A stretch of DNA of 32,000 nucleotides, taken from Methylophaga frappieri (lineage in GTDB: Bacteria > Pseudomonadota > Gammaproteobacteria > Nitrosococcales > Methylophagaceae). The DNA lies in NCBI RefSeq assembly GCF_000260965.1, contig NC_017856.1:930001-962000 (forward strand), in the 5' to 3' direction. Under the pieces are notes generated by a model, which worked only from the letters and a program-made list of their open reading frames with translations, was not told the origin of the DNA and made no database searches. This document shows, in pieces, positions 26,451 to 31,465 of the stretch (position 1 is its first letter; each line of letters opens with the position of its first letter). Both the position numbers and the translations under genes were made by a program.

Positions 26451-27653
26451 ATGGCAAAAATCAAACTCACCAAGTCCGCTGTCGATGCGGCACACCCCCA
26501 GGCGCAGGCCGTCGAACTCCGGGATACGTTGGTTCCCGGCTTCTTGTGCAAGATTACCCCGTCGGGCCGCAAGGTGTTCATGCTCCAGTACCGGACGAAC
26601 GCTGGCGAGCGCCGCAAGCCCGCCTTGGGTCAGTACGGGGAACTGACCGTCGAACAGGCCCGTTCGCTCGCGCAAGAATGGCTGGCCCAGGTACGCCGGG
26701 GTGGTGATCCCGGCGCAGCCAAGACGGAAGCACGCAAAGCGCCCACCGTCGAAGAGTTGTGCAAGAAGTTCATGGAGGACCACTCCAAGAAGCGCAACAA
26801 GCCCAGCACCCGAGTCGGCTATCAAGGTGTCATCGACCGCTGCATCATCCCGTTGTTGGGCCGCAAGAAGGTCCACGACGTGAAGCGGCCTGACATTGCC
26901 GGACTGATGGAAAAGCTTTCCTACAAGCAGACCGAGGCGAACAAGGCGTTCAGCATCCTGCGCAAGATGTTCAATTTGGCTGAGGTGTGGGGCTATCGGC
27001 CTGACGGCACCAATCCCTGCCGCCATGTCCCAATGTTCCCTGCCGGCAAGTCCACCCACCTTATCAGCGACGAGGACATGGGAAAACTTTTCCGGCAGCT
27101 CGACAAGATCGAGGCCGAGGGGCTGGAGAACTACGTCATCCCGTTGGCGATCCGCCTGCAATTCGAGTTTGCCGGCCGCCGTGGCGAAATCGTCTCGCTC
27201 GAATGGGAATGGATCGATCTGGAAAACCGCCGCGTCGTCTGGCCTGACAGCAAGACCGGCGGTATGTCCAAGCCCATCAGCGAGGAAGCCTACCGGCTGC
27301 TTTCGACGGCGCCGAGGCAGGAAGGCAATCCTTACGTCCTGCCGTCGCCGCGCCATCCAGGGCAACACCTGACCACGGGCGAGTATTACGGCGGCTGGAG
27401 CCGTGCGCTCAAAGCGGCGGGGGCAACGCATGTGGGGACGCACGGCATCCGCCACCGCTCGGCGACCGACATTGCCAATTCGGGTATCCCGGTCAAGGTC
27501 GGCATGGCCCTGACGGCGCACAAGACCGTGGTGATGTTCATGCGCTACGTCCACACCGAGGACAAGCCCGTGCGGGAAGCCGCCGAACTGGTGGCGAATC
27601 GACGCAAGTCGGTCGTCAGCATGCATCAAGAACCGAAAGAGGTGACCGCATGA
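26451..27653 (+). CDS. int: Tyrosine-type site-specific integrase (P4-like, N-terminal DUF4102 arm-binding domain)
   Basis: AAGGAG RBS. The N-terminus is LTKSAVDAA...ELRDTLVPGFLCKITPSGRKVFMLQYRTNAGERRKPALGQYGELTVEQAR (DUF4102 pattern). The catalytic region carries R (FAGRRGEI), HGIRHRSAT (HxxR) and the Tyr in MFMRYVH. Confidence 0.92.
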   Translation: MAKIKLTKSAVDAAHPQAQAVELRDTLVPGFLCKITPSGRKVFMLQYRTNAGERRKPALGQYGELTVEQARSLAQEWLAQVRRGGDPGAAKTEARKAPTVEELCKKFMEDHSKKRNKPSTRVGYQGVIDRCIIPLLGRKKVHDVKRPDIAGLMEKLSYKQTEANKAFSILRKMFNLAEVWGYRPDGTNPCRHVPMFPAGKSTHLISDEDMGKLFRQLDKIEAEGLENYVIPLAIRLQFEFAGRRGEIVSLEWEWIDLENRRVVWPDSKTGGMSKPISEEAYRLLSTAPRQEGNPYVLPSPRHPGQHLTTGEYYGGWSRALKAAGATHVGTHGIRHRSATDIANSGIPVKVGMALTAHKTVVMFMRYVHTEDKPVREAAELVANRRKSVVSMHQEPKEVTA

Positions 27654-27681
27654 TCAGAGGCCAGCAATCCACCTTGCCGCC

Positions 27682-27712
27682 CCAATTGTCGTATCACCGC
27701 TACGACAATTGG
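27682..27712. repeat. Perfect 12-bp inverted repeat (7-nt spacer) between int and the TA module
   Basis: ccaattgtcgta-tcaccgc-tacgacaattgg lies 29 nt after the int stop and 80 nt before the toxin ATG. There is no U-tract. Confidence 0.6.
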
Positions 27713-27791
27713 CTCAGTGGCCATCACCGCCTGCGTATCGTACTAAGCACTGGAAAAGTGTGCCCGTTTCGGGTATAGTTTGAAGGTCAAG

Positions 27792-28175
27792 ATGACGCGC
27801 ATCCTCAAACGAAAGGATTTTGCGCGGTGGCAGGCGGGCGAAAAGCTGTCCGATGCCGCCTTGTGCAAAGCGGTTCAGGAGATGGAAAGCGGTCTGATTG
27901 ACGCGGACTTGGGCGGCTTCCTTTACAAGAAACGGGTTGCCCGCCCTGGTGGTGGCAAGAGTGGCGGCTACCGCACGTTATTGTCGGCCCGGATCGGCAG
28001 CCGCTATGTGTTCCTGCATGGGTTCCCCAAGAGCGACAAGGCGAACATTACGCAGGACGAGAAGAAGGCACTGCAATTCGCCGGCAAGGTGTTCCTGGAA
28101 CTGTCCGCCGAAGCATTGTCGAAGGCGTTGCAGTCAGGCGTGTTATTGGAGGTGCATTGTGAGCAAGATCATTGA
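27792..28175 (+). CDS. RelE/HigB-like type II toxin (PF06296-type RelE family)
   Basis: RILKRKDFARW...LIDADLGGFLYKKRVARPGGGKSGGYRTLLSARIGSRYVFLHGFPKSDKANI contains the GKSGGYR motif and the 'yGF.K..k.Ni' block typical of this toxin family. The ATG at 27792 is preferred over the TTG at 27780. Confidence 0.8.
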   Translation: MTRILKRKDFARWQAGEKLSDAALCKAVQEMESGLIDADLGGFLYKKRVARPGGGKSGGYRTLLSARIGSRYVFLHGFPKSDKANITQDEKKALQFAGKVFLELSAEALSKALQSGVLLEVHCEQDH

Positions 28176-28461
28176 ATCCCTGCGTGGCGATCTGGCCGCG
28201 CTCCACGAAGCGGGAGCGATCGGCAAGGTAACGATGCGCGAGTTCGACGCAATCTGCCCGCCGCCGGTGCGGGAGTTCAGTGCTTTCGATATCAAGCGGC
28301 TGCGTGAAGCCTTGAAGTTTAGCCAGCCGGTGTTCGCTCTTCATCTACACACGTCGGCCTCGACCGTGCGCAAGTGGGAACAAGGCGAAACCCATCCCAC
28401 GGGGCCAGCGCTCAAACTGCTCAACGTCATCGCCGACAAGGGCCTGCAGGCCATCATCTGA
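28159..28461 (+). CDS. XRE-family HTH antitoxin (NadS/HigA-like)
   Basis: The GTG at 28159 overlaps the toxin 3' end by 17 nt. IKRLREALKFSQPVFALHLHTSASTVRKWEQGETHPTGPALKLLNVI is the HTH + 'WEqG...PsGpA..LL' signature of antitoxins paired with PF06296 toxins. The N-terminal part of the track ORF (27898-28158) is an out-of-frame overlap with the toxin and is not coding. Confidence 0.8.
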   Translation: MSKIIESLRGDLAALHEAGAIGKVTMREFDAICPPPVREFSAFDIKRLREALKFSQPVFALHLHTSASTVRKWEQGETHPTGPALKLLNVIADKGLQAII

Positions 28462-28483
28462 TGCCTGACGAGGGAGACAGGCA

Positions 28484-29302
28484 TTGGCGACGCGAATTAC
28501 CCCTTTCAACTCACAGCATCTTGAAGCCGCCTGCCGCGTGCTCGCCGATACCGAACGCGGTCTGAGCGGTACACAGATCGAGCGGCTGCTGCAGGAAATC
28601 GAGGTTGCCGACACGTCGCCCGGCATGACAAAGTGGAAGCGGTTGTTCAATGCGCTGGCCGGTGCGCAGAACCACCACCAGATCGGCAACCATCTCATCA
28701 TGTTCATCAACCGCGCGATGAACCCGGTGAACTACGCCCGCGATCCCGCGACGTTCGCTTGGCGGCGCGACGAACTCAATGTCGTCCTTGCCTTCTCCGG
28801 TTTCTACGTGCGCGATGACGGCAAGGTTGCTCACGCCGATAAGGCCACGACGCTTGATGCCGCCCGCGCCCGCGCGGGACGACTCAAGGCCGCACTGGAA
28901 AGCCGCGTCGTCCATGCGGAAGTGCTGAACTACTGCCGCGCCGAGTTGCTGGAGGAAAACTACTTCCATGCCGTGTTCGAGGCAACGAAAGGTGTTGCGG
29001 AGCGGATTCGCCTGCTGTCGGGCCTGAACGGCGACGGCGCGGACTTGGTGAACAAGGCATTCGCAGGCCAGCAACCCGTTCTCGCCTTGGGACCGCTCAC
29101 CACCGAGTCCGAAAAGAGCGAGCAGAAAGGCTTTGCCAACCTGCTGATCGGCTTATTTGGCGCCGTGCGCAATCCGCTGGCCCATGCGCCCAAGACGAAT
29201 TGGCCCATGTCCGAACAGGACGCACTGGACATCCTGACGCTGGTATCGCTGATTCACCGCAAGCTGGATGGCACCACGAAATTAGCGGCCGTATCGCCGT
29301 AA
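28484..29302 (+). CDS. TIGR02391 (Hypoth_Ymh) family protein
   Basis: TTG start with a GAGGGAGA RBS 6-7 nt upstream. The C-terminal domain is YFHAVFEATKGVAERIRLLSGLNGDGADLVNKAFAG...SEKSEQKGFANLLIGLFGAVRNPLAHAPK...EQDALDILTLVSLIHRKL, which carries the Ymh signature including RNP.AH. The N-terminal half is typical of full-length members (about 270 aa). Confidence 0.75.
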   Translation: MATRITPFNSQHLEAACRVLADTERGLSGTQIERLLQEIEVADTSPGMTKWKRLFNALAGAQNHHQIGNHLIMFINRAMNPVNYARDPATFAWRRDELNVVLAFSGFYVRDDGKVAHADKATTLDAARARAGRLKAALESRVVHAEVLNYCRAELLEENYFHAVFEATKGVAERIRLLSGLNGDGADLVNKAFAGQQPVLALGPLTTESEKSEQKGFANLLIGLFGAVRNPLAHAPKTNWPMSEQDALDILTLVSLIHRKLDGTTKLAAVSP

Positions 29303-29315
29303 GTGAGAGACAGGA

Positions 29316-30599
29316 ATGGACGAGGCGATCGTTGTCTTCTCTCGAAAAGGGATTTTCCAGACCACGATTGCCGCGCGCGACGTTCGCAGCCGGGAACATG
29401 CGCGCAAGCTGTGGCCCTTGGTGTCTCCAGGCGCAGAGCGCCAGATGGTGACATGGGTCAGCCCCTCCTTTGAAAGCGGGAAGCTGCGTCGGCGATCCCA
29501 TTTCCGCGTACTTCCTGCCCAGCACACCTTTAACCCCAAAGCGCACTTCGACGATGAAGAAGCCAGCCGATGGCGCGCCGTGCAGGAAAGTCCTGAACAC
29601 CGGCGGGCGAAAGAACTTGTCGCGGCCGAACTCTCACGACGTTTGAATGCCGGGCTTGCGATGCCGTGGGCGTTCAAGGATATGGATGCGTCGGACTATC
29701 CGCTGGAAGGCAACTTGTTGCTCGGCGCCGACCAGGTGGCAACCGAGCATCCCCTGGAGACGCCATTCGGCAGCAAATTCCGGCTCGACGTTGCCGTGCT
29801 CGGCCCCCCGGTCCAGGCTGAACCGATGGTGCTGGGCGGCGTTGAAATCGAACTCGGCCACGCCTTCGACGGGCGCAAGGCTCTTATCGGGAAGTCGCTC
29901 GGATTCCCGCTCATCTCCATCGACATCACCGAGATGACGCTGGACGAACTCACGCCCGAGTGGGCACGGCAGGTATTGACTGCGACCACGCGGAGCCACG
30001 AGCAAGGACGCCGGCAGACCTACATCTATCTCCACGACCTGCTGTACCCCCTCTACGCGCAATTGCCGGCGTTTCTGGACGACGAGCAGCGCCATCAGTT
30101 CCTTGTGTTTGCCGACGATGAGACCCTGAACAAGTTGGTGCGCTGGATGAACCTGCTCGCCGAAAAGCTGGAGTACCCGAAGGGTACGGTCGCCGTTGCC
30201 TTGGTCAATGGCAAGAACGAACAGTCGCGCAAGATGCTGGAACGCGCGGGACAAGTCGTTGGCCCCGACTGGAGCGAGTTCAACGGCCAGCGATGCCTAC
30301 GACTGACCCTGCCGCGTCCCAAAGGCCCGGCGGATCTCCAGGCCCATCGCTTCCACATGACGATGGCGCGCATCCTGCTGTCGCACACTGATTCGCTCGT
30401 TGGCTACAAGTATTGCAACGGCGTAGACAACCACCACCCTGAAGAAGACGTGTGGGTTGCGCATCGCTGGATCGCCGACTTGAAAACCCATACCCAGCAT
30501 CGCGTCTTGCCGAAGCGGCTGGCTGAACCGATCAACAGATTGATCGCGGTGGTTTCGGACCTGCATCGCAATCACGCGGCTGCCAGCCAAGAGGCGTGA
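29316..30599 (+). CDS. Hypothetical protein with a CoiA-like PD-(D/E)xK nuclease core and an unassigned C-terminal half
   Basis: Starts 13 nt after the Ymh gene. Residues about 60-200 contain SHF...ESPEHRRAKELVAAEL...EHPLETPFGSKFRLDVAVLG...GGVEIELGH...GFPLISID. This parallels CoiA-family blocks (HFAH, ESxxHxxxKxxL, E...RPDV, IEIQxS, GxPVxWI). Residues about 215-427 are not recognisable. Confidence 0.6.
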   Translation: MDEAIVVFSRKGIFQTTIAARDVRSREHARKLWPLVSPGAERQMVTWVSPSFESGKLRRRSHFRVLPAQHTFNPKAHFDDEEASRWRAVQESPEHRRAKELVAAELSRRLNAGLAMPWAFKDMDASDYPLEGNLLLGADQVATEHPLETPFGSKFRLDVAVLGPPVQAEPMVLGGVEIELGHAFDGRKALIGKSLGFPLISIDITEMTLDELTPEWARQVLTATTRSHEQGRRQTYIYLHDLLYPLYAQLPAFLDDEQRHQFLVFADDETLNKLVRWMNLLAEKLEYPKGTVAVALVNGKNEQSRKMLERAGQVVGPDWSEFNGQRCLRLTLPRPKGPADLQAHRFHMTMARILLSHTDSLVGYKYCNGVDNHHPEEDVWVAHRWIADLKTHTQHRVLPKRLAEPINRLIAVVSDLHRNHAAASQEA

Positions 30600-30676
30600 C
30601 CATCCCCCGTCGGAAGTCAGCCGATAGGCAAGCATTCCTGCGGAGTTACGCGCCTATTTGCAAAGAGCATTGAATC

Positions 30677-31465
30677 TCAGTCCGTAGTCGGTTTTGAGGC
30701 TCTTTTCCGCGGGGCCGAAGAAGGCAAAGACGGCAAGCACTCAAACAAGCGTTCTGCATAGACGAACCCCATCCGTCTGACCGCGCCCTGATCGAAATAC
30801 AGCAGCCAAGCGGCAAGTAATGCCAGCGAAATGAGCAGTGTCAAGCCTGCGGCAAGCCCCGGATCGGCAAGGTGCTCTAGGTTAAAATGAGGAGGTACTA
30901 CCTGCAGAATCTTTGCAATCAGCAATCCGTAGACGATGCCCAGGAGGCACGACACGATGCCGGCAGGCTTCATTGCCAGCATATTGCGGTGAAATCCGTA
31001 GGCGATGTTCTCTTTCAGCAAGAGCTGCTTGTTGGAACGCGTGAGTTCGCGAAGCCGCTTTGTGGCGCCAACGTAGATGTCGTCTGCCTTGTCAGGGCTT
31101 GCTGATTCTTCTTCTGCCGTTGGCATGGCGATGCCCAGCTTGGCCGTGATCGCCGTGTGGTAGCGCTGCTTGCTGACACCATCGAGAAACTTGTCGCGAT
31201 GGCGTAACGCGATGGTTGTCGGCATACCGCCCCACCTTGCAACCAGGATCTCTTCAAGCTTCTTCCCGCGCCCGCGAGCTACGCTCGCAAGCGCATAAAT
31301 GGCACCGCAGCCACCAAGCAAGCCGATCACGCCTGTAAGTACCGGGTGCTTTGCGCCGTAGACGCACAACAAAGGAACGAGCAGCGGTAACGCTACAAGA
31401 AGTCCTGGGATTACGCGCGCCTTGCGCTCATAGGGGTCTTTGACCAGTTCAAAAATAGTTGTCAT
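30677..31465 (-). CDS. 4-TM membrane protein of unknown family (candidate effector downstream of the WYL regulator)
   Basis: 262 aa. TM pairs lie at about residues 17-62 (VIPGLLVALPLLVPLLCVYG / VLTGVIGLLGGCGAIYALASV) and about 166-225 (AGIVSCLLGIVYGLLIAKIL / AAGLTLLISLALLAAWLLYF), flanking a soluble helical region of about 100 aa. The start lies 6 nt after the WYL gene stop. Confidence 0.65.
   Translation of the reverse strand: MTTIFELVKDPYERKARVIPGLLVALPLLVPLLCVYGAKHPVLTGVIGLLGGCGAIYALASVARGRGKKLEEILVARWGGMPTTIALRHRDKFLDGVSKQRYHTAITAKLGIAMPTAEEESASPDKADDIYVGATKRLRELTRSNKQLLLKENIAYGFHRNMLAMKPAGIVSCLLGIVYGLLIAKILQVVPPHFNLEHLADPGLAAGLTLLISLALLAAWLLYFDQGAVRRMGFVYAERLFECLPSLPSSAPRKRASKPTTD

Follow-up and report, generated by a model that had tools for sequence, protein, structure and literature searches.

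What does the gene for a 427-amino-acid (aa) protein encode when it begins 13 nucleotides (nt) after the end of a HEPN gene in a genomic island of Methylophaga frappieri, and does its product act on its own? We addressed these questions in a 32,000-nt stretch of contig NC_017856.1 (positions 930,001 to 962,000; hereafter the window). By sequence comparison, the protein is one of a compact, unannotated family of full-length members. Its central part is predicted to adopt the PD-(D/E)xK nuclease fold, its N-terminal part gives signs of distant kinship with CoiA, and its homologues reside among defence genes. We give an even chance to the reading that it is an autonomous PD-(D/E)xK nuclease of the CoiA branch, working in defence or in mobile genetic element (MGE) conflict. 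The gene is defined as follows:

29316..30599, + strand: whole gene of the 427-aa protein (P0001), defined by its open reading frame (ORF); family members are ~410-430 aa

An earlier interpretation made from the letters and translations alone (the sequence-only reading) had begun the feature at nt 29586, which is the codon of E91 and not the gene start. It had also quoted a series of CoiA-like motifs. Located by script, all of these lie at the residues given for them:

residues 61-70: SHFRVLPAQH
residues 91-95 (nt 29586-29600): ESPEH
residues 96-106: RRAKELVAAEL
residues 144-148: EHPLE
residues 155-161: FRLDVAV, containing D158
residues 176-182: VEIELGH, containing E177 and E179
residues 196-203: GFPLISID

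The protein has only two Cys residues (327 and 367) and none in its N-terminal part; with the first at residue 327, the CoiA-type Cys pairs are missing from that part, as had been pointed out. The claimed absence of Walker motifs also held (no Walker A was found by script), and no transmembrane segment is expected, again as claimed, because the peak 19-residue hydropathy is only 1.07.

A compact family with conserved motifs

No match to Pfam, NCBIfam or PADLOC was found for the protein (searched together with three or more neighbours), and none to PHROGs (searched with two neighbours) or to PDB sequences. The family profile likewise found nothing among PDB sequences at E <= 10. A GAP1-M match in 3 of 59 members (E 0.019) fell below the cut-off and was treated as noise. 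A word-indexed search returned 360 relatives; the best 120 of these 360 share 70-97% identity with the protein and belong to numerous genera of Beta- and Gammaproteobacteria, and every named one among them is 'hypothetical'. HMMER, run exhaustively against 1.84 billion cluster representatives (50% identity clusters), gave 167 matches only. The intact relatives found in this way are ~410-430 aa long and align over residues 1-415, which argues that the two halves of the protein are one old unit and not a recent fusion. The sequence-only reading had described CoiA-like blocks fused to an orphan C-terminal half; the half indeed has no specific relative, but it is present in every full-length relative, so the fusion is not recent.

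Conservation was counted in an alignment of 59 homologues reaching down to 24% identity. Six residues are invariant (F63, W118, G132, D158, E177 and Y364), and H95, E144, E179, K188, P198, R233, H260, F265, W319, G363, W380 and P405 are near-invariant. H95 is retained in 58, E179 in 56, E144 in 54 and E91 in 45 of the 59 homologues, while position 188 carries Lys in 55 and Arg in the remaining 4. Retention at this depth indicates that the motifs are not due to chance. The conservation of E179 also agrees with the earlier observation that the last motif reads ExE instead of ExK/ExQ.

A predicted PD-(D/E)xK domain and a ferredoxin-like C-terminal half

We next modelled the protein with AlphaFold2 using the 59-sequence family alignment (predicted local distance difference test, pLDDT, 90.3; predicted template modelling score, pTM, 0.89). 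The model has four parts:

29316..29525, + strand: N-terminal beta-rich domain, residues 1-70 (model secondary structure; hhalign to CoiA over residues 15-111; the HF element, H62 and F63, is kept)
29574..30047, + strand: predicted PD-(D/E)xK nuclease-fold domain, residues 87-244 (predicted structure, VIA-align matches, conservation)
30066..30422, + strand: ferredoxin-like (beta-alpha-beta-beta-alpha-beta type) domain, residues 251-369 (structural matches; conserved H260, F265, W319, G363 and Y364)
30423..30596, + strand: C-terminal beta-meander and long terminal helix, residues 370-427 (model; conserved W380 and LPKRL.EP block with K400 and P405)

The predicted core elements of the second part are a helix (93-112), three strands (140-148, 154-163 and 171-179), a second helix (186-194) and a further strand (199-203), and a family-specific hairpin with W118 and G132 is inserted at residues 117-133. 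In this model, the candidate active site would be composed of E91/H95/K99 on helix 1, E144 on strand 1, D158 on strand 2, E177-x-E179 on strand 3 and K188 on helix 2. The nuclease core proposed in the sequence-only reading is therefore present in the predicted structure, as a helix / three-strand / helix / strand arrangement around E144, D158, E177/E179 and K188.

A structural search independent of Foldseek, performed with VIA-align over 48,161 PDB representatives, separated the 427-aa model into two matched regions, residues 87-244 and 251-369. The best match to the first region was 9y1l_B (Z 8.0, root-mean-square deviation 2.9 Å over 107 residues), followed by TT1808 (1wdj; Z 7.5, 3.7 Å over 118 residues), 3ijm (Z 6.8) and the DUF820 structure 3ot2 (Z 6.7). 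Further matches included I-Bth0305I, Bax1, DrdV, VC1899, Can2, Vsr, VRR_NUC and AbaSI. In total, at least 15 PD-(D/E)xK structures matched this region with Z of 5-8, and such nucleases were recovered almost exclusively. Because the matches are uniform in identity and the invariant residues are well placed, the assignment of residues 87-244 to the PD-(D/E)xK fold is solid as a prediction. Foldseek comparison of the full 427-aa model with PDB and BFVD returned nothing at E <= 0.001.

The C-terminal half was also modelled alone (pLDDT 81.5), and residues 255-367 again formed a plain ferredoxin-like fold. Its best matches were de novo designed ferredoxins (Z 9.1 and 9.0), followed by ribosomal proteins and amidase dimerisation domains, and residues 251-369 of the full model matched ferredoxin-like folds of all kinds. 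With Foldseek, the model of this half found nothing in PDB at E <= 0.001 (best E 0.034, PII-like proteins among others). The sequence-only reading could place no motif here; the fold can be placed and is a very common one, yet nothing specific was matched. The C-terminal half is a common fold with no sequence relatives. Judging from the conserved aromatic and basic residues F265, Y364, K365, W380 and K400, it is a reasonable guess that this half binds nucleic acid.

Suggested distant kinship with CoiA

CoiA is a demonstrated single-stranded DNA (ssDNA) endonuclease with essential D95 and E105, and its known role is D-loop processing in transformation (bioRxiv 10.1101/2024.02.06.579203). Its closest relative is COG4636 (structure 1wdj), in which the catalytic Lys has migrated, and CoiA itself combines PD-ExQ with an Arg at the migrated-Lys position (Feder & Bujnicki 2005; PMC1189080). 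None of the Pfam CoiA models matched the 427-aa protein or its 59 relatives at E <= 1, and PF06054, searched against all six reading frames of the complete genome, gave nothing at E <= 10. The single CoiA match in the taxonomic class of the window was spurious: the ORF, of 288 aa and from a 0.4-Mb genome, is unrelated. Bona fide CoiA sets comprised six proteins from another phylum and 486 from a protein collection; at least 120 of the latter carry PF06054, PF25164 or both, and at least 89 carry both. CoiA is invariant at C33, C36, H54, E67, H71, K75, D108, Q124 and R136, and its zinc-finger residues are C33, C36, H51 and H54.

Profile-profile comparison with hhalign aligned the family to 40 CoiA proteins carrying PF06054 and PF25164 over residues 15-111 (67% probability, P 5.2e-5, score 44) and to five CoiA proteins with P 1.9e-4. 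The nuclease region alone gave P 2e-4, and the reversed-template controls gave P 0.78 and 0.55. These values lend weight to the CoiA homology proposed in the sequence-only reading, and the alignment reproduces the claimed collinearity of the blocks (HF.H, ES.EH...K, E144 and D158). Specifically, CoiA HFaH pairs with H62-F63, CoiA ES.EH...K pairs with E91-S92...H95...K99 at identical spacing, the strand-1 Glu of CoiA pairs with E144, and CoiA D108 pairs with D158; E67/H71/K75, D108 and E122 of CoiA are the equivalents of E91/H95/K99, D158 and E177. The nearest named clusters in a protein atlas were all CoiA_N or CoiA_nuc (0.86-0.88), which we take as a lead only.

Two hallmarks of CoiA are missing from the family. 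The CoiA Cys pair falls on P34-G39 of the 427-aa protein, where the family has no Cys, and only the first His of the C2H2 finger is kept (H62, 40/59). CoiA's ExQ and Arg, with Q124 and R136 invariant, are replaced by E179 (56/59) and by K188 (55 Lys, 4 Arg), so that the family reads D-ExE, with K188 (Arg in 4/59) lying on the post-strand-3 helix, the expected site of the migrated residue. Since no profile-to-sequence search reaches CoiA, the kinship would be one at the superfamily level and not Pfam membership: the sequence comparisons suggest that the N-terminal 245 residues are a distant module of the CoiA superfamily whose finger has degenerated.

Compared with CoiA of S. pneumoniae and its B. 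subtilis counterpart YjbF, the family shares the order of modules (N-terminal finger, PD-(D/E)xK core, long C-terminal region) and the placement of an acidic residue on strand 1, Asp on strand 2, Glu on strand 3 and, on the helix that follows, a basic residue. It differs in lacking the finger Cys and the second His, in having ExE and Lys for CoiA's ExQ and Arg, and in carrying a 17-residue hairpin after helix 1 and a longer loop between strands 2 and 3. Its C-terminal half is unrelated in sequence and, when compared with the C-terminal extensions found in 10 long CoiA proteins, showed no similarity (P 0.15). The settings differ as well: CoiA belongs to competence regulons of Bacillota, whereas the 427-aa family occurs in defence islands, islands resembling integrative and conjugative elements (ICE-like) and plasmids of Pseudomonadota.

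COG4636/Uma2 (DUF820; 1wdj and 3ot2), a family of putative restriction endonucleases, is among the best structural matches to residues 70-244 (Z 7.5 and 6.7) and shares the H...D...E...K pattern with Lys moved onto the helix after strand 3. Unlike the 427-aa protein, Uma2 is a single domain of ~190-210 aa without N-terminal finger or ferredoxin-like C-terminal half. The family profile compared with 27 Uma2 proteins gave P 0.044 and 0.019 (probability 1-2%), values that are not significant and are worse than those obtained with CoiA; PF05685 (Uma2) matched 1 of 59 members (E 0.0049).

Linkage to the Ymh gene is local

Whether the protein works alone depends first on the gene upstream, which in the window belongs to the following series:

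26451..27653, + strand: tyrosine integrase, left edge of the high-GC island (Pfam PF00589, PF13356)
27780-28175, + strand: RelE-family toxin (Pfam PF06296, 5.5e-45)
about 28159-28461, + strand: helix-turn-helix (HTH) antitoxin overlapping the RelE gene (HTH matches)
28484..29302, + strand: Hypoth_Ymh/TIGR02391 HEPN protein (PADLOC PD-Lambda-3_B 3e-179, Pfam PF09509 1.6e-45)

PD-lambda-3 is described as 'Nuclease, HEPN' and acts by abortive infection (Vassallo et al. 2022). Its A component is a 160-aa PD-(D/E)xK protein, and its B component a Ymh/AbiJ_NTD3 HEPN protein. In the window, a PD-lambda-3 B homologue stands without the A nuclease, behind the RelE/HTH pair (27780-29302); A had no match among the ORFs of the island's left arm in the window, and the 427-aa protein matches neither the A nor the B model of PADLOC.

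We then examined 80 loci from species-representative genomes. The Ymh gene lies directly upstream of the 427-aa gene in ~32 of them, with a constant spacing of 13-14 nt in ~28-32. In 8 loci the RelE-HTH pair abuts the 427-aa gene without a Ymh gene, and other upstream genes encode AbiEii, an HTH_37 protein or an HTH_3 protein. On the protein tree, a Ymh gene next door is seen within a single supported subclade (28 of 37 rows there; 28 of 70 tree rows overall), and the deeper branches (49-82% identity) are all without it. Two loci (L022 and L027) carry an intact 427-aa gene beside a remnant of the Ymh 3' end. An even 400-genome sample of the phylum, with the window genome added, contained the 427-aa gene in 3 of 401 genomes (the window genome, G187 and G202). 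A Ymh homologue was present in four of the 400 (G187, G423, G334 and G207), three of which are without the 427-aa gene, and G202 had no Ymh match at E <= 1e-10. In E. coli PD-lambda-3 loci, the Ymh gene is present and the 427-aa gene absent.

These data bear on the strongest alternative, in which Ymh/HEPN and the 427-aa nuclease form a two-gene module, an abortive PD-lambda-3 variant with the CoiA-like protein in place of A. The fixed spacing speaks for it, as do the presence of B (3e-179) without A in the window, the 'Nuclease, HEPN' annotation and abortive mode of PD-lambda-3 itself, the occurrence of the Ymh + 427-aa block behind two different upstream contexts (RelE-HTH, or a 312-aa gene with PD-lambda-3 A) and the pairing in a 74%-identity homologue (L059). 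The upstream neighbour is a close B homologue, and a pairing of nuclease and HEPN recurs. However, six other loci have the order 312-aa gene, PD-lambda-3 A (match 1.6e-100), B gene and 427-aa gene, so the 427-aa gene does not replace A there. The protein is also 2.7x longer than A and is encoded downstream of B, whereas A lies upstream; the PD-lambda-3 system of E. coli, which was tested by experiment, defends although it has no such gene; and adjacency restricted to one subclade, survival of intact 427-aa genes after Ymh deletion and the occurrence of each gene without the other in the genome sample all argue against a fixed pair. We consider the two-gene module unlikely.

The linkage is real but local, since it is found in one subclade only and each gene is found without the other, and the best explanation for it is that the two genes were transferred together in a single island lineage. 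The 427-aa protein is probably autonomous from Ymh, and the 'Ymh partner' of the sequence-only reading does not extend across the family. For the annotation of 'orphan' PD-lambda-3 components it matters that the B homologue next door is no fixed partner. One sampled genome also carries a fusion of the two genes: L125:1498-2748 (+), on contig 80 of G187, is a 416-aa in-frame hybrid ORF that begins with ~158 N-terminal Ymh residues (outside the HEPN part) and continues as the 427-aa protein from ~residue 167. D158 is lost, while ExE, K188 and the whole C-terminal half are kept, and the hybrid looks like a deletion between adjacent genes.

Defence neighbourhoods and horizontal mobility

We further scanned 127 ORFs in the flanks of 20 divergent loci. 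These encode GajA/GajB (3-4 loci), AbiEii/AbiEi, AriA-like and PtuA-like ATPases, capP/RmrA-type peptidase regulators, an Eco57I-type methylase, DndB, integrases and IS66; PDC-S06 and PD-lambda-3 A+B are also among the defence neighbours. Residence beside defence systems therefore extends across the divergent homologues. Directly downstream of the 427-aa gene, GajA, PDC-S06 and 6A-MBL were found in some loci, and two genes recur. One encodes an unknown 236-aa protein ~11 nt downstream on the same strand in 17-19 loci (e.g., L004:6292-6999 +); it is seen whether or not a Ymh gene lies upstream, neither Pfam nor PADLOC recognises it, and it may be an optional partner. The other, a 447-aa gene directly downstream in 6-7 loci (L046:6300-7640 +, L050, L051, L052, L054 and L062), is likewise unmatched in Pfam and PADLOC; it accompanies the family branch of 81% identity, which is itself preceded by an AbiEii or HTH gene.

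The 427-aa gene was present on 17 of 72,556 plasmids and in 0 of 50,697 phage records. Pseudomonas plasmid copies lie among HipA, RES and GIY-YIG genes. On about a dozen Acinetobacter plasmids (H19-H30) and in L072, the gene is in two pieces (residues 1-400, no annotated coding sequence) that adjoin the same membrane, WYL and 6A-MBL genes as in the window, so that these plasmids propagate a broken copy. Identical 427-aa proteins were placed by the protein tree in Comamonas, Achromobacter and a Bacteroidota metagenome-assembled genome (MAG) (L038-L042, L055), which points to recent horizontal spread, and a Planctomycetota MAG has a copy with 96% identity. The identity across phyla reflects either very recent horizontal transfer or mis-binning of contigs in the MAGs.

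Because the gene is cargo in a variable, defence-rich region of islands and plasmids, an anti-phage or anti-invader role suggests itself, and this genomic context, taken by itself, tips the balance somewhat towards defence. A second alternative is that the protein processes the DNA of its own island or plasmid (recombination or D-loop intermediates) and not foreign DNA. Such housekeeping would fit the known role of CoiA in D-loop processing, the presence of the gene on plasmids and its position near an integrase in many loci, between int and a RadC/ParB_N/DUF736 backbone. Against this, the gene sits in variable cargo with flanks that change by locus and not in the conserved backbone; divergent homologues occupy chromosomal islands, where they neighbour Gabija, restriction-modification or Dnd genes and their 5-kb flanks contain no integrase; the gene is far rarer than such elements (3/401 genomes); and broken copies persist on otherwise complete plasmids. 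We regard housekeeping as doubtful, rather more so than the two-gene module, and continue with the autonomous nuclease in defence or MGE conflict.

Proposed activity and its standing

As such a nuclease, the protein might be organised as follows. Residues 1-70 would be a degenerate CoiA-type finger that has lost its zinc ligands, and residues 87-244 the catalytic core of an endonuclease, probably Mg2+-dependent. E144, D158, E177 and E179 are predicted metal ligands; K188, in place of the 'migrated' Lys of COG4636/Uma2 and the Arg of CoiA, could act as general base or phosphate contact, and H95 and K99 on helix 1 may contribute as in CoiA. The family-specific ferredoxin-like module (residues 251-427) most likely binds nucleic acid or substrate, or gates the nuclease. 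By analogy with CoiA, the protein may cut single-stranded or branched (D-loop-like) DNA intermediates, and these are the first candidate substrates because CoiA is an ssDNA endonuclease.

Several points weigh against this interpretation. The CoiA link reaches 67% only, below the usual standard of 90-95%, and its alignment rests mainly on the N-terminal 100 residues, with strand 3 not cleanly aligned. Z values of 7-8 fall in the grey zone of VIA-align, a range that comes with a warning of common arrangements. ExE for ExK/ExQ could mean altered chemistry. Partners are conceivable, with the HEPN gene 13 nt upstream in ~1/3 of loci and the 236-aa gene 11 nt downstream in 17-19. No PADLOC v2 model matches the family, guilt by association is weak evidence of defence, and the Acinetobacter plasmid copies are broken.

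ExE active sites work in enzymes such as BamHI (D94/E111/E113). The last alternative, proposed because the third-motif Lys/Gln is Glu, is that the PD-(D/E)xK scaffold is kept as a non-catalytic DNA-binding, sensor or regulatory protein, in line with ExE in 56/59 members, the lost zinc finger and the failure of any family model to recognise the core; it is improbable given BamHI, the invariant acidic residues, which inactive scaffolds usually lose, and the Lys/Arg on the next helix where COG4636 and CoiA have theirs.

The only validated defence protein with CoiA similarity found in our literature search was PD-lambda-4B, which matches PF06054 positions 1-63 with an HHsearch probability of 93.6% (Vassallo et al. 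2022), and no paper pairing 'CoiA-like' with 'defense system' was found. The similarity of PD-lambda-4B lies only at the N-terminal zinc ribbon, which is degenerate in the 427-aa protein; PD-lambda-4B works with a P-loop ATPase, and no PADLOC PD-lambda-4 model matches the 427-aa protein. We see the gene product as a putative nuclease of the CoiA superfamily that lacks the zinc finger, carries a novel C-terminal module and belongs to a defence/MGE context. More tentatively, the protein could be an undescribed, essentially single-gene immunity effector, a re-purposed CoiA scaffold that lost its finger, gained a ferredoxin-like sensor or DNA-binding module, and acts on incoming phage, plasmid or ICE DNA by destroying its single-stranded or recombination/replication intermediates, with which mobile islands would exclude competitors.

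If the nuclease interpretation is true, a family so far called 'hypothetical' would be given a fold, a candidate active site and a function that can be tested, and a compact nuclease would be added to the defence catalogue. The CoiA lineage, so far known for transformation in Bacillota, would gain a zinc-less branch on mobile islands of Pseudomonadota in defence hotspots. This would also offer a natural comparison of one nuclease core aimed at own recombination intermediates versus foreign DNA.

The island of the window

In the window, G+C rises from ~0.47 to ~0.60 near 26 kb, which marks the left edge of the island. The RelE/HTH pair ends 22 nt before the Ymh gene, and the promoter scan of 27500-30800 found its sole sigma-70-like site at 27751-27779, just upstream of the RelE gene. 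A convergent pair of membrane and WYL genes follows the 427-aa gene, and the 236-aa gene that lies downstream at other loci was not found in the M. frappieri genome. Beyond the window, on L082 (genome positions 960001-978000; 55-69% G+C), are genes for DUF6685 (352 aa), a RadC-like JAB protein (170 aa), ParB_N (685 aa) and DUF736, a stretch that we infer to be an ICE-like backbone. In many related loci, a RadC gene is again found on the downstream side of the variable segment, which places the 427-aa gene in a cargo slot between the integrase and this backbone.

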